Positions 3,695-39,974 are shown, counted from the first letter of the stretch. The stretch is 42,871 bases of DNA from Muribaculaceae bacterium (GCA_029056365.1 JAIDBM010000064.1:1-42871), one strand, 5' to 3'. Notes: generated by a model from the sequence alone, not told the origin. Numbers and translations are program-made.

Positions 3695-4255
3695 ATGACT
3701 GACCCGAAAACCTACCTCGGCCCGGCTGAAGAGAAAATGGAACTCGCCGTGGCCTATCTCGACGAATCGCTGGCCCATATCCGCGCCGGAAAGGCCAACC
3801 CCAAGATTCTCGACGGAATAAGAGTGGACTATTACGGCAGCGCCGCTCCCATCAGCAACGTTGCCAACGTGAGTGTGCCCGATGCCAGAACCATTACCAT
3901 TACTCCCTGGGAGAAAAGCATGTTCAAGGAAATCGAAAAGGCCATCATCAATTCCGAACTCGGCATCACTCCTGAAAACAACGGAGAGGTTATTCGCCTG
4001 TCGATTCCGCCGCTCACCGAAGAACGCCGAAAAGCCCTCGTAAAACAGTCGAAAGCCGAGGCCGAACAGGCTAAGGTTTCGGTGCGTAACGCCCGGCGCG
4101 ATGCTATCGACGGACTGAAAAAGGCCATAAAACAGGGCATGCCCGAAGACGTGGAAAAAGACGCCGAGGCAAGCGCCCAGAAACTCCACGACAAATTCCT
4201 TAAGAAAATCGACGATCTTTTCGCCGCCAAAGAAAAAGAAATCCTCACCGTATAA
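3695..4255 (+). CDS. frr: Ribosome recycling factor
   Basis: [23 protein letters not shown]; canonical pyrH-frr synteny. Confidence 0.97.
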
Positions 4256-4875
4256 TGATTAGAAATCTGCTTTTCGATCTCGGAGGTGTGATTATGGATA
4301 TCGAACGCCGCAACTGTGTTGCGGCGTTCGAAGCGCTCGGCCTGCCAGATGCCGAATCGTTCTTCGGAGAATACTCGCAAAAAGGTGCCTTCATGCAGCT
4401 TGAGGAAGGCTCTATAAGTGTTGATGATTTCCACCGCCTCCTGCGGAATGAATTCCCTCACGACGTAACGGATTCTCAGATCGACAACGCTTTCCTGCAA
4501 TTCCTCACCGGTATACCGGAACAACGCCTGAAAGCTCTGAGGCAATTACGAAAACGCTTTGGAATTTATCTGCTGAGCAATACCAACGAAATTATGTGGA
4601 ACAGCAAAATCGCCGATGAATTCACAAAAGAAGGACTTACACGCGAAGACTACTTCGATGGCATCGTAACTTCGTTCGAAGCAAAGGCCCTAAAACCCGA
4701 TGCCCGGATATTCCGCTTTGCCGAACAGAAACTCGGCCTTATTCCATCGGAAACACTTTTCATCGACGACTCCACACGCAACCTTGAAGCCGCATCCGAA
4801 CTCGGATTCAACACCCTGCTGGTGAAACCCGGCGAAGAATTCGCCGAAAACCTGGCTCGTTACCTCAGTGTATAA
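4255..4875 (+). CDS. HAD-family phosphatase (YihX-like)
   Basis: FDLGGV motif I, LSNTN, KPD, FIDD..N; TAATG coupling with frr. Confidence 0.88.
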   Translation: MIRNLLFDLGGVIMDIERRNCVAAFEALGLPDAESFFGEYSQKGAFMQLEEGSISVDDFHRLLRNEFPHDVTDSQIDNAFLQFLTGIPEQRLKALRQLRKRFGIYLLSNTNEIMWNSKIADEFTKEGLTREDYFDGIVTSFEAKALKPDARIFRFAEQKLGLIPSETLFIDDSTRNLEAASELGFNTLLVKPGEEFAENLARYLSV

Positions 4876-5758
4876 ATTCGCTGCCATAGGAATGTTCGAC
4901 GGCGTACATCTGGGCCACAGACACCTGTGGAAACAGATTGGCCTTATGTGCGCCGACAGCGGCGCATCGTCATTAGCCGTAACGTTCCGCAACCATCCGC
5001 TGGAACTCATAGCGCCGCAAAAAGCGCCGCTGTCGCTCGGGCCGGTCGACCAACGGGCCGCACTCCTGCGGCAGGCCGGGGCCGACAATGTTCTCATTCT
5101 CGATTTCACACCGGAACTGCGAATGCTCTCCGCCGCCGAATTCGTCAACCTCCTCGCCGACAAATATGCTGTAACCCACATGGTTGTCGGCTTCAACAAC
5201 AGTATCGGCAGCGACCGAGTGTCAACCCCGGAAGCATACGCCCTACTGGCCCAACAGACCCATGTGCACATCTATCCGGCAGAGGAATTACGCATCGAAG
5301 GGATGGAGCGCATAAGCAGCTCCGCCATAAGAAAAGCTCTCGCGACAGGCCACATCGACACCGCCAACAGCATGCTCGGACGCAACTACAGCATAAGCGG
5401 TGTTGTTTCACACGGCCAACAGCTCGGACGCACAATCGGCTTCCCTACTGCCAATATCGTGCCCGACGACTCCCGCCAGGCCTTACCTGCCCCCGGAGTA
5501 TACGCCCTCGATGCCATTCTGCCCGACGGAACTTCCCGACGGGCCATGGCCAATATCGGTAAACGACCTACCGTCGAATCCAGCACCGACGCCCCCATCA
5601 CATTCGAAGTGAACATCTTCGACTTCGAAGGCGACCTATATGGCAAAAACCTTAACGTACATTTTCTGAAACGACTGCGCGATGAACAGCGTTTCGACTC
5701 CCTCGAAGCCCTGCGTAATCGTCTTGAAGAAGACCGACATCAGGCCATAAGCCTGTAA
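4868..5758 (+). CDS. ribF: Bifunctional riboflavin kinase/FAD synthetase
   Basis: GMFDGVHLGH, ISSSAIR, GRTIGFPTAN, NIGKRPT, RLRDEQRF. Confidence 0.95.
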   Translation: MYKFAAIGMFDGVHLGHRHLWKQIGLMCADSGASSLAVTFRNHPLELIAPQKAPLSLGPVDQRAALLRQAGADNVLILDFTPELRMLSAAEFVNLLADKYAVTHMVVGFNNSIGSDRVSTPEAYALLAQQTHVHIYPAEELRIEGMERISSSAIRKALATGHIDTANSMLGRNYSISGVVSHGQQLGRTIGFPTANIVPDDSRQALPAPGVYALDAILPDGTSRRAMANIGKRPTVESSTDAPITFEVNIFDFEGDLYGKNLNVHFLKRLRDEQRFDSLEALRNRLEEDRHQAISL

Positions 5759-5826
5759 TGCCGGCGCTTATAGTATTTCGAAAAAAAACATTATATTTGC
5801 AACTTGAACCGGAAAAGCATGTAGAA

Positions 5827-7392
5827 ATGGAAATGCCCAACTACCCCATCGGAAAACAATCATTTGCGGACATCCGACAAAACGGCTACTTATACATTGA
5901 TAAGACAGCATTTATACCGCTGCTGCTTAAAAATGGATCCTTCAAATTTCTGAGTCGTCCCCGGCGCTTCGGAAAAAGCCTGCTCATTTCTACGCTCGAA
6001 GCCTATTTCACCAACAAACGTGACCTTTTCAAAGGCCTCGCCATCGATCGAATGCAACCTGAGCCTTGGCAGGAATATACAGTATTGCATTTCGATTTCT
6101 CCGGACACAATTACAACCAAGCCAAAATTCTAAATCATTCCCTGAAAAGTAAATTGTCGGAGTATGAGCACAGCCTCGGAATAAATCCAGACGAAGATGA
6201 CGATATATCGCTTCGTTTTCATCGTATCGTTCGTACTTCGTACGAACGCACCGGACGCGGCGTTGTGATTCTGATTGATGAATATGATAATCCAATTACC
6301 TCGGCGATTGACAACCCGGAACTTCAGGACGAGTTGCGCAAAATTCTCTACGGCTTCTACTCTTCGTTCAAGTCGCTCGACCAATACATACATTTCTGTA
6401 TACTGACGGGCGTGACCAAATACGGCAAGATGTCGGTATTCAGCGGTCTTAACAATCTGAAAGACATTTCATTCCTCGATAAATTCGCCGGTATATGCGG
6501 AATTACAGAGGCAGAGCTTCTCGAAAATCTCAATCCTGGAGTAGAAGAACTTGCCAAAAAACTCAATGTTACGACCAACGAGGCTTACAATAGACTGAAA
6601 GTCCATTACGATGGTTACCATTTTTCGGAAGGTTTGATTGATATATACAATCCTTTCAGCATTATCAATGCTTTGTCTGATTCCAAAATTTTGAACTATT
6701 GGGCCGCGACCGGAACTCCTACAATGCTAATAAAGCTACTGAAGGCCCACGACTTTGACATCAGCAAGCTAAATGGCGCAGAAGCGTCTTTGGATGAGTT
6801 AGGCAACATCTACGGGCCGCAAATCAATCCCAAAGCACTCTTCTATCAGACAGGCTATCTGACAATAAAAAGCTACGACCCTGAATATCAATCGTACTTT
6901 CTCAGCTTCCCTAACCTTGAAGTTGAAAGAACTTTTATGGATAATCTCCTCGAAATCTACACTGAGGAGAATACCAACCCTATTGCGAAAGAGATTCCGC
7001 GAGCTCTACGACGTGGGGATGTCAAAAGCGTTATTGCTCTCCTGAAGTCCTTCCTTTCTGGCATTCCGTTTGATCTTCGCAAGCGGGTTGCCAAGTATGA
7101 AAATTATTATCACACAATACTATATGCCATTTTCTCCCTAATTGGCACCGAGGTTGCTGCCGAATATCATACCGCCCGTGGCAGCATCGACATGATAATA
7201 CGCACGAATGATTACATCTATATCCTCGAACTGAAAGTCAACGGCACCGCCGAAGAAGCCATCGCGCAGATTCGTGAGAAGGGCTACGCCGAACCTTTCG
7301 CCACAGACCCCCGCAAAACTATCCTCATTGGCCTCGGTTTCAGCAAAGACTCCAATACAATTACATCCGACAAGGTTGAGCCGGAGATTTGA
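5827..7392 (+). CDS. AAA-ATPase-like protein with C-terminal PD-(D/E)XK nuclease domain
   Basis: PIGKQSF..YIDKT, Walker A RPRRFGKS, Walker B ILIDEYD, C-terminal IDM..ILELK. Start likely 5827 or 5833, after TATATTTG (5792-5799). Confidence 0.88.
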   Translation: MEMPNYPIGKQSFADIRQNGYLYIDKTAFIPLLLKNGSFKFLSRPRRFGKSLLISTLEAYFTNKRDLFKGLAIDRMQPEPWQEYTVLHFDFSGHNYNQAKILNHSLKSKLSEYEHSLGINPDEDDDISLRFHRIVRTSYERTGRGVVILIDEYDNPITSAIDNPELQDELRKILYGFYSSFKSLDQYIHFCILTGVTKYGKMSVFSGLNNLKDISFLDKFAGICGITEAELLENLNPGVEELAKKLNVTTNEAYNRLKVHYDGYHFSEGLIDIYNPFSIINALSDSKILNYWAATGTPTMLIKLLKAHDFDISKLNGAEASLDELGNIYGPQINPKALFYQTGYLTIKSYDPEYQSYFLSFPNLEVERTFMDNLLEIYTEENTNPIAKEIPRALRRGDVKSVIALLKSFLSGIPFDLRKRVAKYENYYHTILYAIFSLIGTEVAAEYHTARGSIDMIIRTNDYIYILELKVNGTAEEAIAQIREKGYAEPFATDPRKTILIGLGFSKDSNTITSDKVEPEI

Positions 7393-7546: not shown

Positions 7547-9280
7547 ATGAAACGCATAGTTGGCATATTGATATTGATTGTTGTTCTGCTTTCCGCCTGC
7601 GGTGGAGGAGATGTGAGCCGCAGGATGGATTTGGCAGACTCCCTGATGGAAGAATGGCCTGATTCAGCACTATGCATACTTCAATCAATTGACTCAGCGA
7701 AAATTGACGGTAAATCACAATATGCCCGATATGCCCTGCTTACCACTCAGGCTCGCGTAAAAAACGACATCCTCAACCTCTCCGACACCTCTGCCCTGCC
7801 ACATCTGGACTACTACCGCGACAACGGATCCGACTTCGACCGCATGCGGGCAGCGTTCTATAAGGCGCAGATTTATGGCTTGACCAATAATAATTCTGAA
7901 AGAATTCTCAATCTTCTGTCCGCGGAAGATTTCGCTAAGGAAGTCAACGACCAATACTGGCTCGCAAAAGTGTATGAGCAGAAAGCAAGATTATATAACA
8001 GTACGGGGTATCTGCAAGAATCTGTAAACGATGCTTATAAAGCAATTGCGCTTTATCACCTGCACTCAAAAAAACTCAATGAAGCATTTCTTTACTGCGA
8101 TATTGCTACAATCTACTATAATTTTTCTAAATACAAAGAATCGGAAGTTATGCTTGACAGCATACAACTCCTCTTTGACAAAGAACTTGGAGAGTCGGAA
8201 TATCTCCGGGCTTACTTTTGGGATATAACCATTTCCAACCTGATTGCCAAAGGTAATTATAAAAAGGCAGATTCCGTTAATAAGCATTTGGAAGCTTTAA
8301 ACATAATAAAAGATTCCCATATGCTCAAAAACGACCTCTTTTTAAAAATCAATGGCGATACAACCGGAATCAGCACTGATCTGAAAGAATTTAAAAAGCT
8401 TTGTACAACAGAGCCTCTATTAACTGCCTATTATCAGATTTCTTATAACTACGAATTCCTTCGCGGAAACATACAGGGCGCTAAAGCATTTGTAGACAGC
8501 GCAATATATTTTCATGATATTGCTGTTCGAGAAGCCTTAAGACAATCTGTCATCGCCACACAGCTGGATGCACAGATTCAGAAAAGCTATCAGCTCAAAC
8601 AAAAAAATCAATGGTTGCTATATATCTCATTGTCATTGATTATTGCCATACTGATTTCTTTTATATATTATCGTTTGAACATCATACGAATTCAGAATAA
8701 AAAAGATTCAACAGTAAACGAGATTTCTGCCCAACTCGCAAAGCAGCATCTGATTACAGACGGTTACAAAAAAGAAATAGCGTCACTGAATCAGGATTTA
8801 GGAATTTCAAAAGTAAAAATAAAAGACCTTGAAGATTCGAACGCAAGATTTAGCACAGAGTATAATCGATTAGCTATACCGGATATTCTTGTATCTCAAT
8901 CCAACACTCTGGCAACAGCCTGTCTGAAATATATCGACAGCATCGACAAAAATGAAAAAAATGCCACTTATGATGAGATACAGTCTATTCTTCGGAGTCT
9001 GATCTCAGAAAATTCATTGTTGTTACAAGAAAAACAAATCAATGAAACATACAATGACATTCTAATCAATTTCAAAAATGACTTCCCTAAAATCTATAGG
9101 GATAATCGCGAACTGATAGTATTCATGTTCACAAAAACCAAACCGAGACTGATTTCCGTTATATTGCAAAAACCGGAACAGACTATCTATACCAAACGTA
9201 AGAGAATTATAGAAGAAATTCGCAAATCAGATTTTTCAAAAAAAGATATATACCTGAAAGCATTTGGACACAATCATTAG
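7547..9280 (+). CDS. Membrane-anchored TPR sensor / C-terminal HTH (LuxR-like) one-component regulator
   Basis: Lipobox LSAC, then a TPR-like helical region, a TM helix (WLLYISLSLIIAILISFIYY), a coiled coil and C-terminal ISVILQKPEQTIYTKRKRI. Confidence 0.72.
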   Translation: MKRIVGILILIVVLLSACGGGDVSRRMDLADSLMEEWPDSALCILQSIDSAKIDGKSQYARYALLTTQARVKNDILNLSDTSALPHLDYYRDNGSDFDRMRAAFYKAQIYGLTNNNSERILNLLSAEDFAKEVNDQYWLAKVYEQKARLYNSTGYLQESVNDAYKAIALYHLHSKKLNEAFLYCDIATIYYNFSKYKESEVMLDSIQLLFDKELGESEYLRAYFWDITISNLIAKGNYKKADSVNKHLEALNIIKDSHMLKNDLFLKINGDTTGISTDLKEFKKLCTTEPLLTAYYQISYNYEFLRGNIQGAKAFVDSAIYFHDIAVREALRQSVIATQLDAQIQKSYQLKQKNQWLLYISLSLIIAILISFIYYRLNIIRIQNKKDSTVNEISAQLAKQHLITDGYKKEIASLNQDLGISKVKIKDLEDSNARFSTEYNRLAIPDILVSQSNTLATACLKYIDSIDKNEKNATYDEIQSILRSLISENSLLLQEKQINETYNDILINFKNDFPKIYRDNRELIVFMFTKTKPRLISVILQKPEQTIYTKRKRIIEEIRKSDFSKKDIYLKAFGHNH

Positions 9281-9373
9281 ATTTATTCGTGATACACCTG
9301 ATGATTAACAATATTTAACCTATATTCATTATTCAAAAGCACTTTAAAGGCCCTGATAATATGCCACTTGCGT

Positions 9374-9391
9374 TTTGAATAATTATTCAAA
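9374..9391. promoter_or_regulatory. Perfect 18-bp palindrome, candidate operator
   Basis: TTTGAATAATTATTCAAA; a degenerate second copy TTTGAATAATTGTT lies at 9427-9440. Confidence 0.45.
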
Positions 9392-9454
9392 TTCATGCCT
9401 ACTGATTTACAGATAGTTACAGGAGATTTGAATAATTGTTTTTTGAGCAAAACA

Positions 9455-9486
9455 TTTGGAAAAGTATTTTGCTGCCACTAAATTTG
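9455..9486 (+). promoter_or_regulatory. -33/-7 promoter of the DUF3244-like/RiPP operon
   Basis: TTTG (9455-9458), 20 nt spacer, TAAATTTG (9479-9486). Confidence 0.65.
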
Positions 9487-9505
9487 CGGCAAAACACAAA
9501 GAAAT

Positions 9506-9892
9506 ATGAAACACAAGAAACTAATCTTCGGCCTTTTGTTTTTGCAATCATCCTTTCTGGCTGTGAACGCCGACACCCCAAGTGGCCCCACTGGAAGCGT
9601 GGGAGCGGGATCAATACCGATATGGCCAAAAGAGGGTCCAACAAAGGGGCGTCCCAAGACACCCTCCGCCCAGCGGGTGGAAGCCTTCTACGAAGACGGC
9701 TACCTGTATCTGAACTTCAAATACAGCGAAGGCCCGGCGGTATTGTATGTATATGATTCCGCCCAGACATCACTACGTAGCCAGACTGTATTCCACACCG
9801 ACTCCGAAGCTGCCTTATACATCGGCAACCTATACGATGCATACATCCTAATCATGACCTCCAATGGTCATGAGTATGAGGGATGGATATAA
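9506..9892 (+). CDS. Secreted DUF3244-like small beta-sandwich protein
   Basis: Signal peptide, Pro/Gly-rich linker ending RPKTP, C-terminal YILIMTSNGHEYEGWI; lies downstream of a TPR regulator, as is usual for this family. Confidence 0.6.
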   Translation: MKHKKLIFGLLFLQSSFLAVNADTPSGPTGSVGAGSIPIWPKEGPTKGRPKTPSAQRVEAFYEDGYLYLNFKYSEGPAVLYVYDSAQTSLRSQTVFHTDSEAALYIGNLYDAYILIMTSNGHEYEGWI

Positions 9893-9949
9893 ATAATCAA
9901 CGCTGTCTAATCAATGGACAGTAATTTGTTAACCCTTAAAAATTTTCCT

Positions 9950-10207
9950 ATGGAGAAATTTTTCCTTAAGGTTCTTCATGAAGAACCGGTAACAGATTTA
10001 TCTCTGCAAGAACTTGTTGGTGGGGGCTGCTGGATAAATGTATGCATTAAGTACAACGCAGATTGTACTTGCTACAATGACAGTAGTTATATCATATGCG
10101 CTGATTTCTGTTCATTGGACTCAGTGGAAAGATGCCCTGGTGATTGTGATGGTCTGAGACCTCTATGCCCTCCTGTCACAACAATCGGAGATGGAGAAAT
10201 TCATTAA
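9950..10207 (+). CDS. Cys-rich RiPP precursor peptide with double-glycine leader
   Basis: Leader MEKFFLKVLHEEPVTDLSLQELVGG, then a 60-aa core with 9 Cys. Adjacent to a radical SAM enzyme and near a C39 transporter. Alternative start at 9914. Confidence 0.85.
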   Translation: MEKFFLKVLHEEPVTDLSLQELVGGGCWINVCIKYNADCTCYNDSSYIICADFCSLDSVERCPGDCDGLRPLCPPVTTIGDGEIH

Positions 10208-10213
10208 TCCAAT

Positions 10214-10259
10214 AAAAGTTACATTATGGCATCGAAACCGATGCCATAATGTAACTTTT
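10214..10259 (+). terminator. Perfect 21-bp stem-loop between precursor and maturase (attenuator/mRNA stabiliser)
   Basis: AAAAGTTACATTATGGCATCG-AAAC-CGATGCCATAATGTAACTTTT. Confidence 0.75.
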
Positions 10260-10272
10260 CAACAAAATCTAT

Positions 10273-11565
10273 ATGGAACTCTCAATATATAGCATTACAT
10301 TTGTAGAAAACGGAAAATTCTATTTGTATAACTCTCAGACCAATTTCTTTTCTGAAATATCTGAGGAGTTATATAAGTCGCTTAAAAACCGTACATGGCA
10401 GGAGCTTCCTGAGTCAGTAATAGAGCAACTTATATCAAAGAAGATTATAGTGAATAGCGCCTCAAAATACGACTACTATAACCTTAAGCGATTGCAATTT
10501 AATGCCCAAAAGTACAACACCGGTTGCTTGGGTCTCGTTATAGTGCCTACTACAGCATGCAATTTCGCCTGTCCTTATTGTTTTGAGCCCAAAAAGGACC
10601 CTAAAACCATAACTGCTCCAATAATAGACGACCTACAAAAATTTATCAAATCGTTTGTCGGTGCACATAATATTGATTTGACATGGTATGGCGGTGAACC
10701 CCTTTTAGCTTTTAATCAAATAAAAGACATCTATAGAATGCTGACCGAAGACGGAATGCCCGAAATAAAGGCTCATTCTATTGTTACAAACGGATATCTG
10801 TTCACTGAAGAAGTCATTGACTTCTTTAAAGGAAAAAAACTGGGCAATATACAGATTACTATTGATGGCAGTAAGGAACATCATAATACAACACGCTGTC
10901 TTAAGGCTGGTCAAAAACCTACATTTGATGTAATTATCAACAATATCGAGTTGATTTTACAGCATATGCCCGAGACGATTCTTGCCATAAGGGTAAATGT
11001 CAAGAAATCAAATCTTATAGAATATCTGCATCTGTTAGAATATTTCAACAAGAAATATCCTGACAACAAAAAGCTTAACATATATCCAGGTCTCATAAGA
11101 GAAGAAACTCCGGATAAGAAATCACTCACGTGCGACTGTTTTTCATCAGAAGACGTATCAGACCTTAACCAGTTGATAAAGGAAGCCGGCTATAGCGCAA
11201 ATATATTTCCTAAACGACAACATCGTGGATGCATGGCTCAATCCTTGAATTCATATATAATAGGCCCGGAAGGAGAACTATACAAATGCTGGAATGATGT
11301 GTCAAACCCAAATATGGTTATCGGCAACATTTCTTCCATGGATACGAGCGGAAGTACTCGATTACTGAACTTTATGACCGAATCGACACCATTCGATGCA
11401 AAATGTAAAATATGCCATGCCTTCCCTATATGTGACGGTGGATGTGCATATTACCGTCTGCGGAACCTGAAGGAAAATGCATGCTTTCCAGTCTGCTCGT
11501 CTTTCAAGGATATTGAGAAGCTCAAACGAGCACTATTCAATGGTGTAAAACCCGAACTGATATAA
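10273..11565 (+). CDS. Radical SAM/SPASM peptide maturase
   Basis: CNFACPYC (CX3CX2C), WYGGEPLL, TNG, QITIDG. SPASM GCMA..YKCW..CKICHAFPICDGGC..C..C. The ~85-aa N-terminal extension could be an RRE. Confidence 0.92.
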   Translation: MELSIYSITFVENGKFYLYNSQTNFFSEISEELYKSLKNRTWQELPESVIEQLISKKIIVNSASKYDYYNLKRLQFNAQKYNTGCLGLVIVPTTACNFACPYCFEPKKDPKTITAPIIDDLQKFIKSFVGAHNIDLTWYGGEPLLAFNQIKDIYRMLTEDGMPEIKAHSIVTNGYLFTEEVIDFFKGKKLGNIQITIDGSKEHHNTTRCLKAGQKPTFDVIINNIELILQHMPETILAIRVNVKKSNLIEYLHLLEYFNKKYPDNKKLNIYPGLIREETPDKKSLTCDCFSSEDVSDLNQLIKEAGYSANIFPKRQHRGCMAQSLNSYIIGPEGELYKCWNDVSNPNMVIGNISSMDTSGSTRLLNFMTESTPFDAKCKICHAFPICDGGCAYYRLRNLKENACFPVCSSFKDIEKLKRALFNGVKPELI

Positions 11566-11633
11566 AATCACAATTATCTCATTAGTTCCTTTGATGTTTT
11601 ATATATTTGCAATAATTTTAAAACAGAAATAAG

Positions 11634-13973
11634 ATGAAAAGTTGGAAAGACATAGTGCTAAGATTTATAGTGTTGTTGGTTCTATTCAATGGCATGCTTT
11701 GTGTTTCGGCATATGACATAAAGGTACGAATACAAATAAAAGAAACTAACGAACCTCTGTCCGAGTTTGTGCCGATTTTTTGTACGAAAGACGGCCACGA
11801 AAATTATGGCAAGGGAGTACTGCAGGCCGACAGCACCTTTTTAATTAAATACATGCCGGACAGAGGAAACTATACTATAGTATACACGATAGGAGATACG
11901 CATTACGGAAATCCTATAACGTTGCCGCGTGATACAGTGGTAAATATTTTTGTTCCTGAGAGGTTATTGCCAGAGTCCACAGAAGCCGAAGAACTCGGAG
12001 AACTTAAAGTTGAAGGCCATAGCCGTTATATCAATGGCAACCAGATTACGTTCATACCAACCAAAGATGAAAAAAAAATATCTCGCGGAGGTATCGAACT
12101 GATACGAACAATGGCGCTCGCCGACCTGTATGTCGATCCCATGTCGAAAACTGTCACTACAGCCTCGGGTAACGGCGTAGCGTTTTTTATTGATATGCAA
12201 CCGGCTACGCAGGTAGAGGTTGATATGTTGCGTGCCATGGACATACAGACTGTTGAATATTTCGAGTCGCCATCCGACCCTCGTTTTCATGGAGCACGGT
12301 ATGCTATAAATTACGTTCTTGTGAAATATGATTATGGCGGATATACAATCTTTAGTGGCCAGCAGAATTTCATACAGAATTATGGAGACTATCGCATGTA
12401 CTCACGTTATACAAAGGGGAAGATGCTCTATGATTTAGGCGGTGGATTCAACTATGCGAGCGATTCACACATCGGAAGCGACAAGCTGAGCGTTTACAAC
12501 TTTCCCGACTTCCCGCTGGAAAAACACTCAATCAGCGATGGTGCATCAGCAAGCAAACGAACAGGCTATGGAACGCTGAGGGCTACATATCAAAGCCAAA
12601 AAGTCAATATTGCAAATACGTTGAGTCTTTCAGGTGCAAACACGCCTCATAGCCTCTCACACAGTCTTGTAAATTACAATCCGGCCTTATTCCCGGAGGA
12701 AGAAAGCCGAAGATATTCCCACAACAGCAACCTTAGCGCTGTATGGAGCGGCAACTATTTTTTTGAGCTTCCCGCCGATTTCTCACTTACGGTCACTCCC
12801 ACTGCCTCGTATTCCAAATTCAGAAATGCATACTCCTTCTCCGAAGGCAGTACATTCCATAATGATTCGCGCGACAAATCATGGAAATATAATCTTCTGG
12901 CAGAGTTATATAAGAAATTTGGCAATATGAGTATTGGTGCCAGATTATCTACAGAAGGAAGTGGCAACTCAGTAACTTATACAGGTACCGAATCATCCAA
13001 GTCACACGGGCATACTCAGGGAGGTCTTGCCAATCTTTCGGCCAATTTTGAATTTGGCAAGTTATGGGGTGCTATAAACGCTGGCGTAAAATTCTCTTCG
13101 CAGACTGTTTCTGGTTTAAATTATAAATCGGTATCGCCGTCTTATTTCTTTCAGACAGGATATAACTTCAGCCGTCAAAGCAGCATTAACATGTTTTCCA
13201 ACTATACGCCATATACAGTGCCGATGAGCCAGAAGACCGACAATTTTGTTCTCCGCGATAAATTGGATGGAGTACGTGGCAATCCATCACTAAAGAACGG
13301 ACAGTTCTTCAATATTGGATTACAGTACAGATATATGCCTAACCGGATTATAAGTCTGTCAGCCTTCTGGACCTTCACCCGCACGAGTAATATGATCATA
13401 GACAGATATACTACAGAAATTTACCAAGGCTATCCGATAATGGTACGTAGCTGGCTTAACCACGGCTTCATGAACCATCACAACTACGGGTTAAACCTTT
13501 CGGTAAAATGTCTGAATTCCAAACTGCGACTTAACGGCGGTATACGCGGAAATAGTGTTGCACGCCATTCGATGCAGAACTACAGCGCCACACATCTTGA
13601 TTTCTTTGGCCAGGCTTTGTATATGTTCGGTCAGTTCTATGCCTCGGCATCATATAATTACCACCGTACAAATATCGGCAATTCATCGATAAGCAAGTCT
13701 CCATCTTATTATAGTATGGTTGTTGGCTGGGGCAACGGTAACTGGAACATATCGGCTACAGCATTCAATCCTTCTGTAGGTAATTACAAATCGAGATATT
13801 CGCTGATTGATACACCTGAGTTCAGCTCTCGTACTCAGAGCTATTCATCGTCATACCATCGGCTGTTTGTGTTGAATGTGTCGTATTCATTCTCCTATGG
13901 AAAAAAGGTAAATCAAACCAATCAGGTCGGTCAGCTTCAGGGCGGAGCCTCCGGCATACTTGATTACGAGTAA
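11634..13973 (+). CDS. Outer-membrane beta-barrel protein, TonB-dependent-receptor-like
   Basis: Signal peptide, N-terminal beta domain, plug-like segment (FFIDMQP..VEY..P..RF..AINYV), Ser/Tyr/Asn/Gly-rich amphipathic strands, LNVSYSF near the C-terminus. Confidence 0.75.
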   Translation: MKSWKDIVLRFIVLLVLFNGMLCVSAYDIKVRIQIKETNEPLSEFVPIFCTKDGHENYGKGVLQADSTFLIKYMPDRGNYTIVYTIGDTHYGNPITLPRDTVVNIFVPERLLPESTEAEELGELKVEGHSRYINGNQITFIPTKDEKKISRGGIELIRTMALADLYVDPMSKTVTTASGNGVAFFIDMQPATQVEVDMLRAMDIQTVEYFESPSDPRFHGARYAINYVLVKYDYGGYTIFSGQQNFIQNYGDYRMYSRYTKGKMLYDLGGGFNYASDSHIGSDKLSVYNFPDFPLEKHSISDGASASKRTGYGTLRATYQSQKVNIANTLSLSGANTPHSLSHSLVNYNPALFPEEESRRYSHNSNLSAVWSGNYFFELPADFSLTVTPTASYSKFRNAYSFSEGSTFHNDSRDKSWKYNLLAELYKKFGNMSIGARLSTEGSGNSVTYTGTESSKSHGHTQGGLANLSANFEFGKLWGAINAGVKFSSQTVSGLNYKSVSPSYFFQTGYNFSRQSSINMFSNYTPYTVPMSQKTDNFVLRDKLDGVRGNPSLKNGQFFNIGLQYRYMPNRIISLSAFWTFTRTSNMIIDRYTTEIYQGYPIMVRSWLNHGFMNHHNYGLNLSVKCLNSKLRLNGGIRGNSVARHSMQNYSATHLDFFGQALYMFGQFYASASYNYHRTNIGNSSISKSPSYYSMVVGWGNGNWNISATAFNPSVGNYKSRYSLIDTPEFSSRTQSYSSSYHRLFVLNVSYSFSYGKKVNQTNQVGQLQGGASGILDYE

Positions 13974-16162
13974 TGAAATTCAAGCTGATACGCCAGCTGG
14001 AAACAATGCAGTGTGGCGCTGCGTGTCTGGCAATGATATGTACGGCCCTCGGTATGCCCGTTTCCTTACGGAGGGCCGACAGATTGTGCGGTGCTTCCAA
14101 GCAGGGTGTATCAATGCTTGCAATTTCAAAGTCGGCATCGTCATTAGGCCTTGAAAATGCTACGGTTAAACTTACTGTCGAGAGGCTGTGCCAAATGCCG
14201 TTGCCTTGTGTTTTGCATTGGGATCAAAACCACTTTGTGGTGCTGCATAAAGTTTCGGACAATGGTCGCAAATTCCATATAGCTGACCCCGGTAAAGGAA
14301 AGACCACATACTCCAGAGCTGAACTCGAAGAGCATTGGATTAGTTCATCTACAGGCGATGACGAAAAGGGCATTGCCATGTTTTTCAATCCCACGGAATC
14401 GTTCTTCAGGATGCCCAAGGAGGAGCAATCGAGCGGCATAAATGTTGCCGAATTGTGGGGTTTTATAACCAGGCACAAGAAGTATTTTCTTCAGATACTT
14501 CTCGGCCTTCTGGTGGCTTGCCTGATGCAACTGATAATGCCGTTTCTCACACAAGCCATAGTGGACGCGGGCATAAAAAACTCATCGATTAAACTCATAT
14601 GGCTGATTCTGCTCGGTGAACTTATAATCATCATAGGACGTACCCTCACAGAATTCACCCGGAGCTGGTTGCTGCTCCATCTGTCGATGCGCCTGAACTT
14701 GTCGCTGCTCAACAGTTTCTTTCTTAAGTTGATGAAGCTTCCGATGAGTTTCTTCGACATTCGGAAATCAGGCGATATCATCCAGCGCATGTCTGACCAT
14801 GGACGTATTCGAAGCTTCCTCACTTCTCAGTTGCTGGGAGTAATATTCACTGTCGTCAGCCTGCTGGTATTCAGCGTAACTCTTCTGATTTACAGCCGAC
14901 TCATATTTGTGGTGTTCTTAGGCATGAGCATAATCTATATTCTGTGGGTGGTGCTGTTCCTGAACAGGCGGCGTATTATCGATTATGAAAGTTTCTCTGC
15001 TTCAGCCAAAAGTCAGGATATGACTTTTCAGTTTGTCAACTCCATGCAGGAAATCAAGCTGCAGAGCTGTCAGGAACGGCGTCGCAGCGAATGGGAAGAC
15101 ATGCAAATAGAGCTGTTTGAGGTTCAGATGAAATCGTTGAAACTTCAGCAAACTCAGGAAGCCGGAGCCTTGTTTATCAACGAACTGAAAAACATTCTTA
15201 TAACCGTTTTGGCGGCATCCGCAGTCATAAGCGGGCAATTTACTCTCGGCGCCATGCTGGCTGTACAGTATATTATCGGCCAGCTGAACTCCCCTCTAAG
15301 CCAGCTGATCGGATTCATATACTCCATGCAGGACGTAAAAATCTCACTGGAGCGAATCAACGAAATACACAGCTATGATAACGAGAACCGGAACAAGGTG
15401 AATGTTGCCCCGGTTATTACCAATCCTGAAATAGAATTTCGCAATGTGAGTTTCAGATACGACAAGTATTCGCCGAAGCTTACAATCGATGATGTCAGTT
15501 TCTCCATTCCTGCCGGAAAGGTAACCGCTATTGTCGGAGCCTCGGGCAGCGGCAAAACCACTCTGCTGAAACTGATGCTGGGTTACTATTGCCCTGAAAG
15601 CGGGAGTATATTAGTGTCAGGCCATGACCTGAATAATTATAATCGCGAGTCCTGGCGGTCGAACTGCGGAGTCGTGATGCAGGATGGAGTTATTTTTTCG
15701 GATACGATAGCCCGTAATATCGCGGCCACTGACGGACCGGTTGACCTTGATCGTCTGAAATATGCCGCCACCCTGGCTAACGTGCATGAATACGTAATGG
15801 CCATGCCCTTGAAATACAACACTCAAATCGGTAAAGACGGCATGGGTTTAAGTCAAGGTCAGAAGCAGCGCATTCTTATTGCCCGGGCAATCTACCGTAA
15901 TCCCAAGTTTATTTTTCTTGACGAGGCTACAAACGCTCTGGATGCCTGTAATGAAAAAGAAATAATTGAGAAGCTGGATGATTTCTTTCGAGGGCGTACG
16001 GTAGTGGTCATCGCCCACCGTCTTTCAACCGTAAGAAATGCCGACCAGATATTGGTAATCGACAATGGTAAAATATCAGAGTGTGGAACTCACACAGAGT
16101 TGATTCACTCAAAAGGTATATATTACAATCTGATAAAAAATCAATTGGAATTAGGAACATGA
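13973..16162 (+). CDS. Peptidase C39-containing ABC transporter (PCAT, SunT/LanT-like)
   Basis: C39 residues QCGAACLAM, HWDQNHFVV and IADP; TMD; Walker A GASGSGKTT, signature LSQGQKQR, IFLDE, AHRLST. Confidence 0.95.
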   Translation: MKFKLIRQLETMQCGAACLAMICTALGMPVSLRRADRLCGASKQGVSMLAISKSASSLGLENATVKLTVERLCQMPLPCVLHWDQNHFVVLHKVSDNGRKFHIADPGKGKTTYSRAELEEHWISSSTGDDEKGIAMFFNPTESFFRMPKEEQSSGINVAELWGFITRHKKYFLQILLGLLVACLMQLIMPFLTQAIVDAGIKNSSIKLIWLILLGELIIIIGRTLTEFTRSWLLLHLSMRLNLSLLNSFFLKLMKLPMSFFDIRKSGDIIQRMSDHGRIRSFLTSQLLGVIFTVVSLLVFSVTLLIYSRLIFVVFLGMSIIYILWVVLFLNRRRIIDYESFSASAKSQDMTFQFVNSMQEIKLQSCQERRRSEWEDMQIELFEVQMKSLKLQQTQEAGALFINELKNILITVLAASAVISGQFTLGAMLAVQYIIGQLNSPLSQLIGFIYSMQDVKISLERINEIHSYDNENRNKVNVAPVITNPEIEFRNVSFRYDKYSPKLTIDDVSFSIPAGKVTAIVGASGSGKTTLLKLMLGYYCPESGSILVSGHDLNNYNRESWRSNCGVVMQDGVIFSDTIARNIAATDGPVDLDRLKYAATLANVHEYVMAMPLKYNTQIGKDGMGLSQGQKQRILIARAIYRNPKFIFLDEATNALDACNEKEIIEKLDDFFRGRTVVVIAHRLSTVRNADQILVIDNGKISECGTHTELIHSKGIYYNLIKNQLELGT

Positions 16163-16317
16163 AAAAAGATTCTGACCATGAAATATTTCTCATTCCCCAA
16201 AAGCCGTTGCGCCGGCTCAAGGATATTCCCCGAAAGATTTATATCGGAGGTTATTTATCCATATTCCTGGCGCTGGCCGCTTTAATTATTGTATATATCT
16301 TCTTGTCTACTTTTTGA
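16159..16317 (+). CDS. 52-aa single-TM protein resembling the N-terminus of a HlyD-family adaptor (stub or truncated)
   Basis: ATGA overlap with the PCAT stop; IPRKIYIGG followed by a hydrophobic helix; no periplasmic domain. Confidence 0.5.
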   Translation: MKKDSDHEIFLIPQKPLRRLKDIPRKIYIGGYLSIFLALAALIIVYIFLSTF

Positions 16318-16349
16318 GGCTGGTACAAATTATTGTATATATCTTCTTG
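16284..16349. repeat. 22-bp direct repeat pair
   Basis: AATTATTGTATATATCTTCTTG at 16284-16305 and 16328-16349. Confidence 0.9.
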
Positions 16350-16364
16350 GAGCAAACCGGCTCT

Positions 16365-16449
16365 AATTTGGCTGTGAGGGAATAATTCATCGGATTAAAT
16401 TTGGCTGTGAGGGAATAATCCATAAGATTAAATTTGGCTGTGAGGGAAT
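16365..16449. repeat. 33-bp tandem repeat (2 full units + 1 partial)
   Basis: AATTTGGCTGTGAGGGAAT starts at 16365, 16398 and 16431; intervening sequences are AATTCATCGGATTA and AATCCATAAGATTA. Confidence 0.92.
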
Positions 16450-16565
16450 TTTGTTGTATATTGCACTATACATCAGAACTTTACAATTATAACAGAATCC
16501 AAATTCATATTTAAGTGCAAAATTTACGATAAGACCAAACCAGCTCTAAGGGAATAATTCAGGGT

Positions 16566-29335: not shown

Positions 29336-30478
29336 CTATGTCTTCCGATATTTTTTTCGATACTCCGATGGCGTAAGACCTTTGTGTTTTCTGAAAATCC
29401 GTGAGATATTGCCATAGCCATTGAAACCAACCATATGGGCGGCATCTGCCAGAACAATATCGGACTCTGTGAGCAGACTGGCAAGCCGGTCGCAGCGATA
29501 GCCAAGTATATACTGATATATGGATACACCCATGGTCTGCCTGAATTTTGTTTCAAGATTGCGGCGTGACATCGGCACAAGCTGCAGCAGCTTTCCGGTG
29601 TCGAGTTCGCTCATGTAGTTCTCATTGATATACCTTACCACCTTCAGAACGTTTTCATCGAGAATGTTGTATCGGTCGGTTGAACACCGCTCGATAATTT
29701 TGCTGGGCAACACCTTAAGATTGAACGATGTTATGTTGGACTGAAGAATCTGCTGCTCGATAAGTTTCGCCATGGCGTAGCCGCCTTCCTCCACCAGAAG
29801 GGGTATTGAAGAAATAGGAGGGTCGGATATCGAGCACATCAGCTCATCGTTGTCGATACCCAGCAGCGATATTTCTTCCGGTATGGAAATATTCGACATC
29901 TTGCAGGTTTCGGATACAAACAGTGCCCGCTCATCGTCGCAGCAGAACAGCGCAACAGGCTTAGGAAGCTGCCGCAGCCACTGTGCAAGCTCGTGTCGCA
30001 TCTCATCGTTTACCGTCGGAGTCATGAAACTGCGGAAATTACCGCCGCAACGTCTTACCTCACGTTCAAATCCTTCCAGGCGTTCTTCCGACCATACCAC
30101 ATCCTTAAAACCGAAATAAGCGAATTCGTTGTACAGCTTTTCCTTGAAAAATTCAGCTGCTATACGCCCCTCGTTATGGTAGTCGCCGGTGAGATTGGAG
30201 TAGCGTGTGCTTCGCCAGTGGAAATTCAACAGCACCACCGGCACATTGAGTTCCTTCTGAAAATCAATCGTATTGCTCTCAAGCTTGCCTATGATGGCAT
30301 CGGGCCGCCACTTACGCGTCCATTCAAGCACGCCCTCGATTCCATGCATCTCTATAAAATAAAATGGCAAGCGATAGAACATCCATGGCCCATGTTCCTG
30401 AGAGTATCTCACCAGGCCGCGAAGCAGACGGCGGTCGTAGTCGCTTGAATAGTCGATCAGAAGGAGTATCTTAATCAT
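29336..30478 (-). CDS. XylR-type regulator (periplasmic-binding-fold sensor + AraC HTH)
   Basis: WSEERLEGF, LPKPVALFCCDD, IPEEISLLGIDND, SRRNLETKF, GLTPSEYRK. ATG at 30478 chosen as start. Confidence 0.88.
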   Translation of the reverse strand: MIKILLLIDYSSDYDRRLLRGLVRYSQEHGPWMFYRLPFYFIEMHGIEGVLEWTRKWRPDAIIGKLESNTIDFQKELNVPVVLLNFHWRSTRYSNLTGDYHNEGRIAAEFFKEKLYNEFAYFGFKDVVWSEERLEGFEREVRRCGGNFRSFMTPTVNDEMRHELAQWLRQLPKPVALFCCDDERALFVSETCKMSNISIPEEISLLGIDNDELMCSISDPPISSIPLLVEEGGYAMAKLIEQQILQSNITSFNLKVLPSKIIERCSTDRYNILDENVLKVVRYINENYMSELDTGKLLQLVPMSRRNLETKFRQTMGVSIYQYILGYRCDRLASLLTESDIVLADAAHMVGFNGYGNISRIFRKHKGLTPSEYRKKYRKT

Positions 30479-30484
30479 TTCAAA

Positions 30485-30605
30485 CGCAAATTGAGGATTG
30501 ACTTGCGCAAATGTATGAAATAACATCTGTTTTTACAAATATTCAACTCGCTTTTTGATGATAAATGCAATAATTTGCGCAAATCGAAGATAAATAAACG
30601 CAAAT
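30485..30605. promoter_or_regulatory. Candidate operator repeats in the divergent regulator/ROK intergenic region
   Basis: CGCAAAT at 30485, 30506, 30578 and 30599 (two pairs, each 21 bp apart); TAATTTTG -7 element at 30633-30640. Confidence 0.55.
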
Positions 30606-30658
30606 CATTGATTTTCGTGCAATTTGTTGAGCTAATTTTGCAAAAAAAGTTAAGAGCC

Positions 30659-31498
30659 ATGAAAATCGGAGTTGATTTAGGAGGCACCAACATTCGGGTC
30701 GGCCTTATCGAAGGAGATTCTGTCCTTGCAAAAAAAATATCGCCATGTCCGGCCGATCGTCCGGCCGATGAAATACTTGACTGCATCGGAAATATGATTT
30801 CCGATACCTTACATGATGATGTCAGGGGAATCGGCATAGGAGTTCCATCGGCTGTAGATGTAGACAATGGCATAGTATATGATGTATGCAATATACCATC
30901 GTGGAAAGAAGTTCGCCTTAAGGAATATCTTGAAGGACGCTTCGGCCGACCGGCATTCGTCAACAACGATGCCAACTGCTTTGCACTCGGAGAAACAATC
31001 TACGGCTGCTGCAGCGATTTCCGCAACGTTGTAGGAATAACTCTCGGCACTGGCGTCGGCATGGGTATTATAATAAACGGCCAGCTTTACAACGGGGTGA
31101 ACGCAGGCGCCGGCGAATTGAGTTCCATTCCCTATCTCGACTCCGACTACGAACATTACTGCAGCAGTTCATTCTTCACGCGCTGCCACGGTATCACAGG
31201 AAAAGAAGCCGCATCACTCGCATCACAGGGCAATGAGCGGGCCTTGGCCATATGGGAGGAATTCGGCACTCACCTGGGCAAGCTGCTGACTGCCGTACTT
31301 TATGCATATGCGCCTGAGGCGATTGCATTCGGAGGCAGCATATCCCAGGCTTTCTCCCATTTTGAAAAGAGTATGCGCCGCGAACTCTGCAATTATCCAT
31401 TCAAGGCCACACTTCGCCGACTAAGGATATGCACATCGAACGGTGGCGACACAGCACTCCTCGGAGCCTCGGCCCTTGTAGACCGAAATGCCCGATAA
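30659..31498 (+). CDS. ROK-family sugar kinase
   Basis: GVDLGGTN, GIGVP, NNDANCFALGE, TLGTGVG, AGE. Confidence 0.92.
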   Translation: MKIGVDLGGTNIRVGLIEGDSVLAKKISPCPADRPADEILDCIGNMISDTLHDDVRGIGIGVPSAVDVDNGIVYDVCNIPSWKEVRLKEYLEGRFGRPAFVNNDANCFALGETIYGCCSDFRNVVGITLGTGVGMGIIINGQLYNGVNAGAGELSSIPYLDSDYEHYCSSSFFTRCHGITGKEAASLASQGNERALAIWEEFGTHLGKLLTAVLYAYAPEAIAFGGSISQAFSHFEKSMRRELCNYPFKATLRRLRICTSNGGDTALLGASALVDRNAR

Positions 31499-31527
31499 CC
31501 ATACAAAACATCCCATTCATCACAACC

Positions 31528-34077: not shown

Positions 34078-34089
34078 TATATTTTTACC

Positions 34090-37233: not shown

Positions 37234-37252
37234 CCACATTAAACATATTGTC

Positions 37253-38980: not shown

Positions 38981-39003
38981 CAACCTGACAATAATCTGAA
39001 ATC

Positions 39004-39891: not shown

Positions 39892-39914
39892 TCATACATA
39901 ATTATCTACTTTCC

Positions 39915-39943
39915 GAGGAGACTGTGTATGACACAGTCTCCTC
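39915..39943 (+). terminator. Intra-PUL stem-loop
   Basis: GAGGAGACTGTGT-ATG-ACACAGTCTCCTC, perfect 13-bp stem. Confidence 0.65.
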
Positions 39944-39974
39944 TCTCTAAAAAACATATACAAACATTATACTT

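Follow-up and report, generated by a model that had tools for sequence, protein, structure and literature searches.

The locus described here raises two questions: what a radical S-adenosylmethionine (SAM) enzyme does to the cysteine-rich peptide encoded beside it, and by what route the product is exported. The window, i.e., the whole stretch of DNA that was analysed, is 42,871 nucleotides long and comes from Muribaculaceae bacterium (GCA_029056365.1 JAIDBM010000064.1:1-42871); it is contig C330 of a 2.55-Mb genome that is 95.8% complete. An initial annotation, made from the sequence alone, had placed at 7547-16317 a co-oriented six-gene cluster for a peptide made by ribosomes and then modified post-translationally (RiPP): a regulator, a DUF3244 protein, a precursor with a double-glycine (GG) leader and nine cysteines, a radical SAM/SPASM enzyme, an outer-membrane barrel and a peptidase-containing ABC transporter (PCAT). 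All six open reading frames (ORFs) lie there in the same orientation on the plus strand, together with a seventh, small ORF, and the cluster is real and complete. The parts list was right in its six genes and had missed the 52-residue ORF at 16159-16317, a hairpin at 10214-10259 and a palindrome at 9374-9391.

That the cluster makes a RiPP with a radical SAM modification is nearly certain. As an overall explanation we lean, with modest confidence, towards one in which the enzyme would staple most core cysteines to the residue three positions downstream, the PCAT would cleave the leader and deliver the peptide into the periplasm, and the barrel would serve the outer-membrane step. The type of cluster is already a known kind; what is new here is the substrate rule at the third residue after cysteine (Cys+3) and the anatomy of export.

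The precursor peptide

The precursor (9950-10207, plus strand) is an 85-residue peptide. Its ORF spans 9914-10207 (97 aa), with the likely start at 9950, as in the closest relative, locus L001. A 25-residue leader with GG at residues 24-25 is followed by a 60-residue core with nine cysteines, just as the initial annotation had it; the unmodified core has a monoisotopic mass of 6531.8 and a net charge of -6. Between the window and L001 the leader is 88% and the core 56% identical, and in the leader the proportion of nonsynonymous differences (pN) is 0.07 vs 0.74 for synonymous ones (pS); judged by these rates, the leader is under strong purifying selection. Across relatives, leaders track the enzyme and cores drop to 22-38% identity past the nearest relative. 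Hypervariable cores on a conserved leader suggest that the product is a strain-specific signal or a narrow-spectrum antagonist, and the acidity of the unmodified core argues against a simple cationic membrane-active bacteriocin.

A Cys-rich ORF with a leader of this type adjoins 59 of the 83 unique maturase relatives, as called by a rule that takes a GG/AG/GA-type leader and at least three cysteines and therefore misses lower-Cys cores and 24 of the 83 loci. A second, more distant maturase of the same genome (locus L121, contig C279) belongs to the 83-sequence set and falls outside the 45 non-redundant cores used below.

A substrate rule at the third residue after cysteine

In 45 non-redundant cores (less than 45% identical to one another), the Cys+3 residue is Asn, Asp, Phe, Tyr, His or Trp at 148 of 268 cysteines, as against 27.2% in shuffled cores (z 11.2; reached in 0 of 1000 shuffles), and the motif C-x-x-C is seen twice where 29.6 occurrences are expected. 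The window core taken alone follows the same rule. Seven of its nine Cys+3 residues belong to the set (N5, Y10, Y17, D19, F28, D32 and D40 in core numbering, followed by L44 and V51) vs 2.8 expected (p 0.003), three of the seven being Asp.

The residue set was picked after the first table had been seen, and three checks were therefore run: a G-test that needs no set, held-out cores, and a control family. The set-free G-test gives 170.8 vs 15.6 at offset +3, the next offset reaching 56.6. The held-out sample consisted of 12 cores from a second collection and two further genomes, 43 of 55 having been dropped as at least 45% identical to a training core or to one another; there, Asn, Phe, Tyr, His or Trp occupy Cys+3 in 20 of 58 cases vs 20.6%, a weaker signal (z 2.7). 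The control, a radical SAM family represented by nine cores, is that of the second maturase on C279, with active-site profile I-F-T-T-D-N. It has no Cys+3 signal (9/57, z -0.2) and is biased instead at Cys-1 (N/F/Y/H/W in 26/62, z 5.3), which suggests a different chemistry.

Pooled over 57 cores, aromatic residues are enriched 2.65-fold and Asn 1.92-fold at Cys+3, and β-branched residues and Ser/Ala/Pro/Glu are depleted (0.43x and 0.39x). The favoured residues carry a β-methylene beside an amide or a ring, and the avoidance of the other two groups likewise fits a preference for a β-methylene next to a π system. Asn and aromatic residues alternate at this position inside single cores, C-x-C pairs are common, the cysteine count is odd in 32 of 59 cores, and the signal is shared by several clades that lie apart in the maturase tree. 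At a Paraclostridium locus of the Clo7bot family, whose maturase has the profile Y-Y-V-T-W-N (5/6 shared with that of the window), Cys+3 falls in the set in 27 of 38 cases over six paralogous peptides.

On this pattern, the core cysteines very probably carry thioethers, and a ring register from residue i to i+3 is equally well favoured. The initial annotation had left the ring type open between sactionine and ranthionine; the Cys+3 rule points to i to i+3 rings and, with less assurance, to Cβ, which we consider probable as the attachment carbon rather than Cα. Repeated i to i+3 thioethers at Cβ, as one combined proposal, we put somewhat above an even chance.

Several observations pull the other way. 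Besides the post hoc choice of the set, Asp is not enriched family-wide (0.83x), and Gly, a residue without a Cβ, is close to neutral (0.87x), so that the Cβ reading does not fully explain the pattern. Replication in the 12 held-out cores is modest (z 2.7-2.9); offsets -1 and -2 reach a similar z there once Asp is counted, and the depletion of C-x-x-C is not reproduced in them (4 vs 5.6). Lys or Arg is favoured at Cys+3 in some clades (L049, L067, L108, L016, L017, L042), which may reflect another choice of acceptor in these members of the family. Finally, related clades do not supply fully independent cores.

Some relatives have very regular cores: one precursor (L005:1081-1266) has four C-x-x-F motifs and another (L110) nine C-x-x-N. 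The group further includes L114, L118 and L011:6712-6915, and alternating C-x-x-N and C-x-x-H also occur in it. Such peptides would be cleaner substrates for chemistry tests.

The maturase and the probable crosslink

The maturase (10273-11565, plus strand) has the CX3CX2C motif and the SPASM domain that the initial annotation had recognized: the motif is C96/C100/C103, the radical SAM model PF04055 scores 62 bits, and the SPASM model TIGR04085 scores 52.7 bits vs a cut-off of 27. These three cysteines and seven SPASM cysteines (320, 339, 378, 381, 387, 391 and 408) are invariant in all 83 unique relatives; an eighth cysteine of the SPASM region, C404, is variable, and W340 is kept in 81 of 83. 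The spacing of the seven SPASM cysteines is as in CrpC, and this layout predicts an open site on auxiliary cluster I (AuxI). An N-terminal extension of about 85 residues is likely a RiPP recognition element (RRE): the TIGR04463 and Clo7bot models cover the protein from residue 8-12, and the CteB alignment starts at profile position 51.

Among family models the top scores are those of Clo7bot (208.6; cut-off 600), TIGR04463 (204.7; 525) and CefB (198.3; 600), and all 18 aligned members match these three. Profile comparison with solved structures places the ranthisynthase CteB first (E 9e-37), followed by the anaerobic sulfatase-maturating enzyme (anSME; 9e-20) and the sactisynthase SkfB (5e-12). 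Against an assignment by homology stand three facts: apart from the SPASM domain, all family scores are far below their cut-offs; the active-site profile read from alignments, F104-Y139-V171-T196-W340-N341, agrees at one of six positions with the F-F-T-S-H-Q of the catalytic-proximity positions defined on CteB (PMC10288494; this and the other articles cited here by PMC number were available in part, and statements about them refer to those parts); and a search of the open full-text literature, which leaves most subscription journals outside its scope, found no assay for any member of the family. With 1/6 identity to CteB, the profile cannot settle Cα vs Cβ. A match to the FlmE/OhkG model (136 bits vs 500) was dropped as a lead, as the main text of PMC12703449, in its available part, does not contain FlmE, OhkG or SPASM.

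The notion that the enzyme is anSME-like or an orphan radical SAM protein, with the small ORF beside it incidental, draws on the second place of anSME among solved structures. We consider it extremely improbable: the anSME model TIGR03942 scores 85.5 bits vs a cut-off of 349, precursor-like ORFs are co-conserved beside 59 of 83 relatives, the leader appears to be under strong purifying selection, and a PCAT is encoded in the same cluster. The initial annotation had named clustering with sulfatase maturases lacking co-conserved peptides as one outcome that would overturn its proposal; the data went the opposite way. Its broader reading of a GG-leader, radical SAM/SPASM and PCAT system, whose crosslinked product of about 60 residues is not a characterised compound, stands, with the crosslinks themselves a prediction.

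A more serious competitor keeps the i to i+3 rings and moves the sulfur to Cα (sactionine), a linkage made by QmpB and GggB, two non-hairpin sactisynthases; the bias would then reflect a pocket that prefers flat side chains. Cα thioethers to Phe occur in subtilosin, and the near-neutral Gly at Cys+3 suits this idea. So do QmpB and GggB themselves, which resemble ranthisynthases in sequence and active-site profile and yet make sactionines (PMC10288494). We nevertheless hold it to be rather unlikely, since depletion of β-branched residues, Ser and Ala along with enrichment of Asn and aromatics is more simply read as Cβ reactivity and CrpC, the nearest assayed family, looks ranthionine-forming (PMC13692751).

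Yet another chemistry is conceivable. Sulfur could be added onto the aromatic ring; C-C crosslinks could form at aromatic residues or Asn, the cysteines staying free for disulfides or metal binding; or the enzyme could make no more than one or two modifications close to the leader. In each case the bias at Cys+3 would be a folding motif. Aromatics are the most enriched class at Cys+3, C-x-C pairs are common, six-Cys SCIFF peptides may bear a single thioether according to the part of the source available, and the DynA and cyclophane models do score on the maturase, weakly. The odd cysteine counts, on the other hand, fit all-disulfide peptides poorly, an open site in a seven-Cys SPASM domain is what one expects of enzymes that bind thiols, and Asn and aromatics take turns at Cys+3 inside single cores. 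We regard this group of chemistries as improbable, even more so than the sactionine alternative.

Under the preferred Cβ reading, then, the pathway would work like the ranthipeptide route, the linkage itself being a prediction. By analogy with known family members, the N-terminal domain would bind the leader, the 5'-deoxyadenosyl radical would abstract a hydrogen, the substrate thiol would be held at the open AuxI site, and each crosslink would cost 2 Da. The predicted attachment point is the β-carbon of Asn, Asp, Tyr or Phe, of which Asn in NxxcA and Asp in freyrasin are known Cβ acceptors (PMC8326336). Up to seven of the nine cysteines could be used in the window peptide, among them in the pairs C7-Y10, C14-Y17 and C25-F28. 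The product is likely a peptide of about 60 residues with several i to i+3 thioethers, probably S-Cβ, some of them onto aromatic residues.

Export

The PCAT (13973-16162, plus strand) has C39, ABC_membrane and ABC_tran domains. The Cys, His and Asp residues noted in it earlier are C14, H87 and D105 of the C39 domain, invariant in 16 of 16 aligned PCATs; from what is known of this family, the domain would cleave after Gly25. The barrel (11634-13973, plus strand) is a TonB-dependent-transporter-like outer-membrane protein with a signal peptide, an N-terminal β domain, a plug and a 22-strand barrel (strands counted from the secondary structure of the model), and residues ~118-127 form a stretch that we take to be TonB-box-like. 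It has no Pfam or other curated family match; its structural model (predicted local distance difference test score, pLDDT, 84.6) matches TbpA, FrpB, BtuB and FepA in Foldseek (E 1e-17), which bears out the barrel of the initial annotation. Of 111 loci whose sequence extends far enough, 89 have the barrel gene directly after the maturase gene.

The seventh ORF (16159-16317, plus strand) overlaps the PCAT stop codon in an ATGA and encodes a 52-residue single-pass membrane protein. It is likely the cytoplasmic N-terminus and membrane anchor of an HlyD-type adaptor. As the window copy is divergent, with E 2.6 to a hidden Markov model (HMM) of the mini-proteins, it is tied to these adaptors through its L001 orthologue, which is 42% identical to it and matches the stub HMM at E 4e-5. 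With pN 0.42 vs pS 0.84 between the window and L001, dN/dS 0.18 between L119 and L120, and reading frames that stay open across saturated synonymous change, the stub is, on these measures, under purifying selection.

Adaptor forms found after the PCAT fall into 28 of at most 85 residues, 20 of 144-255 residues and two of full length; two more are ended by the contig or locus end, and L111, which was mis-sized (really 68 aa), is outside the 28. A profile of the short forms matches full adaptors at their N-terminus (E 1e-9 and 2e-5), which is also the only part to which a profile of the 144-255-residue forms aligned. Pfam places HlyD_3 in two of eight scanned 144-255-residue forms and nothing relevant in the other six; the two, of 229 and 255 residues, keep HlyD_3 about 175 residues earlier, the intervening hairpin region being gone. 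At L033 a full 439-residue HlyD protein (TIGR01843 E 1e-39, below cut-off) is followed by TolC, and no barrel is present. Among 67 PCAT loci, a barrel occurs in 65 and TolC in one, L033.

Since the normal adaptor is reduced to a 52-residue stub, an unusual export route seems likely. The PCAT would cut the leader and unload the peptide into the periplasm only, the stub would be retained as an accessory subunit of the PCAT, and the outer-membrane step would fall to the TonB-dependent-type barrel encoded alongside. We give this two-step export through the barrel an even chance at best.

The alternative is export of an ordinary or other kind. The peptide would leave through a full adaptor and TolC whose genes lie elsewhere, or through the type IX secretion system (T9SS), and the barrel, as importer or receptor, would bring it back, mature or metal-loaded, to the periplasmic TPR (tetratricopeptide repeat) sensor described below. 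This alternative is a substantial possibility, if short of even. Most solved relatives of the barrel are importers. Since the same genome has, elsewhere, two TolC-like genes, several weak membrane fusion protein (MFP)-like genes and a T9SS translocon (SprA), the barrel may either export or re-import. ColV, moreover, relies on TolC encoded elsewhere (PMC10352776), DUF3244 is related to T9SS sorting domains, and several loci have two barrels. What speaks against ordinary export is that the TolC-bridging region has been lost from the adaptor in 48 of 50 length-classed loci, the membrane stub being kept under apparent selection, and that the barrel right after the maturase (89/111) is commoner than the regulator (31/89). 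The two-step proposal is further weakened by the divergence of the window stub, by L044, where a full adaptor and barrels share one locus, and by the probes themselves: the TolC probe was a single sequence, loci extend at most ~12 kb downstream, and the set itself supplied the sequences for the barrel HMMs. In favour of the two-step route, a tblastn search of the same genome found no adaptor of the L033 or L044 type.

Two side observations concern export genes. At L003/L105 the stub keeps its N-terminal motif and then continues in a frame that is not hydrophobic (80 aa); this looks like a frameshift, which means that loss of the stub is possible. At C178:5386-9821 of the same genome, a lone PCAT stands with a gene for a large secreted protein, and no precursor, radical SAM or adaptor gene was found alongside.

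Probable regulator, DUF3244-like protein and RNA hairpin

The first gene (7547-9280, plus strand) encodes a 577-residue protein, likely a membrane-anchored one-component regulator. It has a lipoprotein-like signal, a periplasmic TPR superhelix (~21-345), a transmembrane helix (~357-375) and a cytoplasmic helix-turn-helix (HTH)-like C-terminal domain; the structural model likewise has a TPR superhelix, then a long helix that crosses the membrane, and at the C-terminus a small domain made of helices. The protein itself has no Pfam match above cut-off; TPR matches occur in all eight scanned syntenic relatives, above cut-off in six, and these together with the model and the Atlas comparison uphold the regulator call of the initial annotation. 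The C-terminal part resembles HTH/GerE-type Atlas clusters, and one relative matches GerE. The best matches among solved structures are the peptide-binding TPR proteins NprR and Rap, weak (E ~5e-5) and level with generic TPRs. Paralogues in the same genome, at C261:11286-13085 and C58:1231-2949, have no adjoining RiPP cluster in view.

The second gene (9506-9892, plus strand) encodes a secreted small β-sandwich protein. It was called DUF3244 by the initial annotation, and "DUF3244-like" is the fair wording: the window protein has no Pfam match (the PF11589 cut-off is not reached), while three of nine aligned syntenic proteins match PF11589, two above cut-off, and its look-alikes in the Atlas carry this family. 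Among 89 loci with at least 3 kb upstream, the regulator is present in 31 and is joined by the DUF gene in 22, a DUF gene without the regulator occurring in none; the pair is therefore an optional module. It precedes 14 of 20 loci of the nearest clade.

A perfect 18-bp palindrome (9374-9391) upstream of the DUF3244-like gene is a candidate operator. It is identical in L001, though the surrounding spacer has diverged; among 219 loci there is one two-mismatch match besides the window locus and L001. In the least certain step of the proposed mechanism, the TPR regulator would sense a peptide in the periplasm and switch on the operon at the palindrome; such autoinduction is plausible.

Between the precursor and maturase genes lies a perfect 21-bp stem-loop (10214-10259, plus strand; -31.3 kcal/mol, z -10.6). 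A strong hairpin (z < -3) is found 3' of the precursor stop in 32 of 50 relatives, and the element likely raises precursor mRNA relative to the downstream genes. No RNA entry is listed for this stretch.

Genomic setting and spread

The cluster is flanked on the left by ribF and an AAA/PD-(D/E)XK gene and on the right by a TPR gene and a uridine-kinase-like gene (Pfam scan). Per-gene GC content within it is 0.38-0.50 vs 0.518 for the genome. Within the family, 21 of the 301 genomes, this one included, have the maturase; it further occurs in 10 of 401 genomes of the order and in 3 of 401 of the class, each of the three belonging to Bacteroidales; the nearest relative loci carry the Muribaculaceae label, and the 17 other genomes of the same genus have none. 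The cluster is probably an accessory cassette that has moved laterally, as suggested by the lower GC content and patchy presence, which are the only grounds for lateral gain. An empty-site test with the flanking ribF and TPR genes found no matching arrangement in 25 genomes of the genus, which leaves the insertion boundaries undefined.

As far as sequence comparison goes, the cluster belongs to a widespread Bacteroidales RiPP family that lacks a curated model; in family scans, the precursor, regulator, DUF-like protein, barrel and stub match no curated family above cut-off. The novelty claimed for it holds in that, in the family scans and the open full-text literature, no curated family or characterised cluster is matched, and fails in that it is not unique, with relatives in 20 of 300 other same-family genomes. 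The HMM check proposed in the initial annotation had a similarly divided outcome: TIGR04085 matched, TIGR04148 reached 43.7 bits vs 300, and TIGR04149 gave no match.

Several neighbouring features deserve mention. Directly upstream (5758-7392), the AAA-ATPase and PD-(D/E)XK nuclease gene (PF09820/PF08011; GC 0.44) may have arrived together with the cluster. An exact 22-bp direct repeat with a spacing of 44 (16284-16349) spans the end of the stub gene, and three 33-bp tandem units (16358-16456) lie just 3' of it; neither repeat has copies elsewhere in the genome, and these are possibly scars at the right edge of the cassette or an array of binding sites. A CRISPR identity for the 33-bp units was rejected, as the copies number only three, real spacers are absent and no cas gene lies close by. 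A polysaccharide-utilisation locus at 29336-41654 (LacI/AraC-type regulator, ROK protein, GH2, SusC/SusD pair, GH20) is unrelated.

L001 has no DUF3244-like gene between its regulator and precursor genes; a second barrel gene and a 53-residue PCAT-like fragment take that place (3728-6358), which points to duplication and rearrangement at the locus. Extra genes near the PCAT or precursor in L035/L117, L029/L112, L071, L111, L113 and L075, by eye glycosyltransferase-, LanC- or nucleotidyltransferase-like, hint at glycosylated variants. The second RiPP cluster of the same genome (L121; G000:C279:317-12219) has a DUF3244-like gene 62% identical to that of the window, an 89-residue GG precursor with eight cysteines, a 27%-identical radical SAM gene, three barrel-like genes, a PCAT and a 48-residue adaptor stub.

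Significance

In Bacteroidales genomes, no RiPP signal is commoner than that of radical SAM peptide clusters (PMC10352776). This cluster is one of many, and its value lies in the family-level rules, i.e., Cys+3 and the export anatomy, and not in the window copy. The open full-text literature yielded no characterisation of the maturase family or the Cys+3 rule, no aromatic β-thioethers made by a radical SAM RiPP enzyme and no truncated HlyD in such clusters. The Cys+3 rule turns a cluster of unknown chemistry into a residue-level prediction; if aromatic β-thioethers do form, the maturase would offer a tolerant means of building numerous small rings into a peptide. The series of reduced HlyD adaptors gives a concrete lead on export in clusters with a PCAT and an outer-membrane protein (OMP) and no MFP, a question raised in PMC10352776. 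It is tempting to generalize to a large RiPP class whose hypervariable peptides are stapled by CWN-type SPASM enzymes, repeatedly, from Cys(i) to Cβ(i+3), with benzylic bonds to Tyr, Phe, His and Trp among the links, and whose products Bacteroidales secrete in two TolC-independent steps, by a PCAT with a vestigial HlyD anchor and then an exporting TonB-dependent-type barrel; in so full a form we find the idea doubtful.

Comparison with known systems

The closest family by score is Clo7bot (TIGR04334, CtpM) of Clostridia, which resembles the window system in its 34% identity to the maturase, in 5/6 profile residues and in the bias of its peptides' Cys+3 to Tyr, Asn, Asp and Phe. The differences are that the window maturase is below the family cut-off, the window precursor does not match the Clo7bot precursor, and Clo7bot has arrays of 41-50-residue precursors without a GG leader in a Gram-positive host. 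In the open full-text literature, the Clo7bot and CtpM names and an assay were not found. One Clo7bot array (L220:109-1363) has at least six precursors, and an annotated seventh coding sequence (1251-1376) is without Cys; a Clo7bot-like peptide rich in Cys is encoded in an overlapping frame (1217-1363), so that the annotators probably chose the wrong one.

CrpC (TIGR04463) of Methanococcus voltae was described in 2026 as binding three clusters, through a seven-Cys SPASM domain, and installing thioethers in short Cys-first motifs; these are read as ranthionines, the repeats carry C-X-X-Q/D, and an open AuxI site is proposed to bind the substrate Cys (PMC13692751). The two systems are alike in the layout of RRE (a likely one in the window enzyme), radical SAM and SPASM, in seven SPASM cysteines of nearly the same spacing, in the second-best model score, in short Cys-first motifs and in multiple thioethers, found in CrpA and predicted for the window peptide. 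They are unlike in that the window maturase stays below the TIGR04463 cut-off, that CrpA is a 29-kDa protein and the window precursor an 85-residue GG peptide, and that the available part of the source describes no PCAT or barrel and no aromatic acceptor in the reported motifs.

With the ranthipeptide systems CteB/thermocellin, PapB/freyrasin, NxxcB/NxxcA and QhpD, the window shares a SPASM radical SAM enzyme, for which CteB is the best solved match. PapB uses Cys-X3-Asp. Cβ thioethers are established to Asp in freyrasin and to Asn in NxxcA, the latter in a four-residue ring (PMC8326336). Unlike the window arrangement, NxxcA has its acceptor before the Cys (Asn20/Cys23) and one ring; acceptors listed for ranthipeptides in the available text are Asn, Asp and Thr, not aromatic, and no set of GG leader, PCAT and barrel is given.

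Closer in gene content are the GG-Bacteroidales radical SAM systems (TIGR04148/TIGR04149) and the biosynthetic gene clusters (BGCs) of PMC10352776, which likewise combine a GG leader, a Cys core, radical SAM/SPASM, PCAT, OMP and TPR genes. That survey noted Bacteroidales BGCs that have a PCAT and an OMP and lack an MFP, without settling on a route of export for them, and its BGC1 and BGC2 may overlap with the family of the window. Here, however, the maturase is far from the TIGR04148 cut-off, the precursor does not match TIGR04149 (cut-off 25), which 7 of 34 precursors of relatives match at 13-20 bits, all below the cut-off, and the cluster is without pseudo-radical SAM, YcaO or LanC genes. 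As to type I/colicin V export by PCAT, HlyD-type MFP and TolC, the window preserves the order in which an HlyD-type gene comes after the PCAT and is translationally coupled to it, an arrangement that L033 has in intact form; it departs from that system in that the adaptor is a 52-residue stub without the periplasmic part, and in that the cluster has, instead of TolC, a TonB-dependent-transporter-like barrel.

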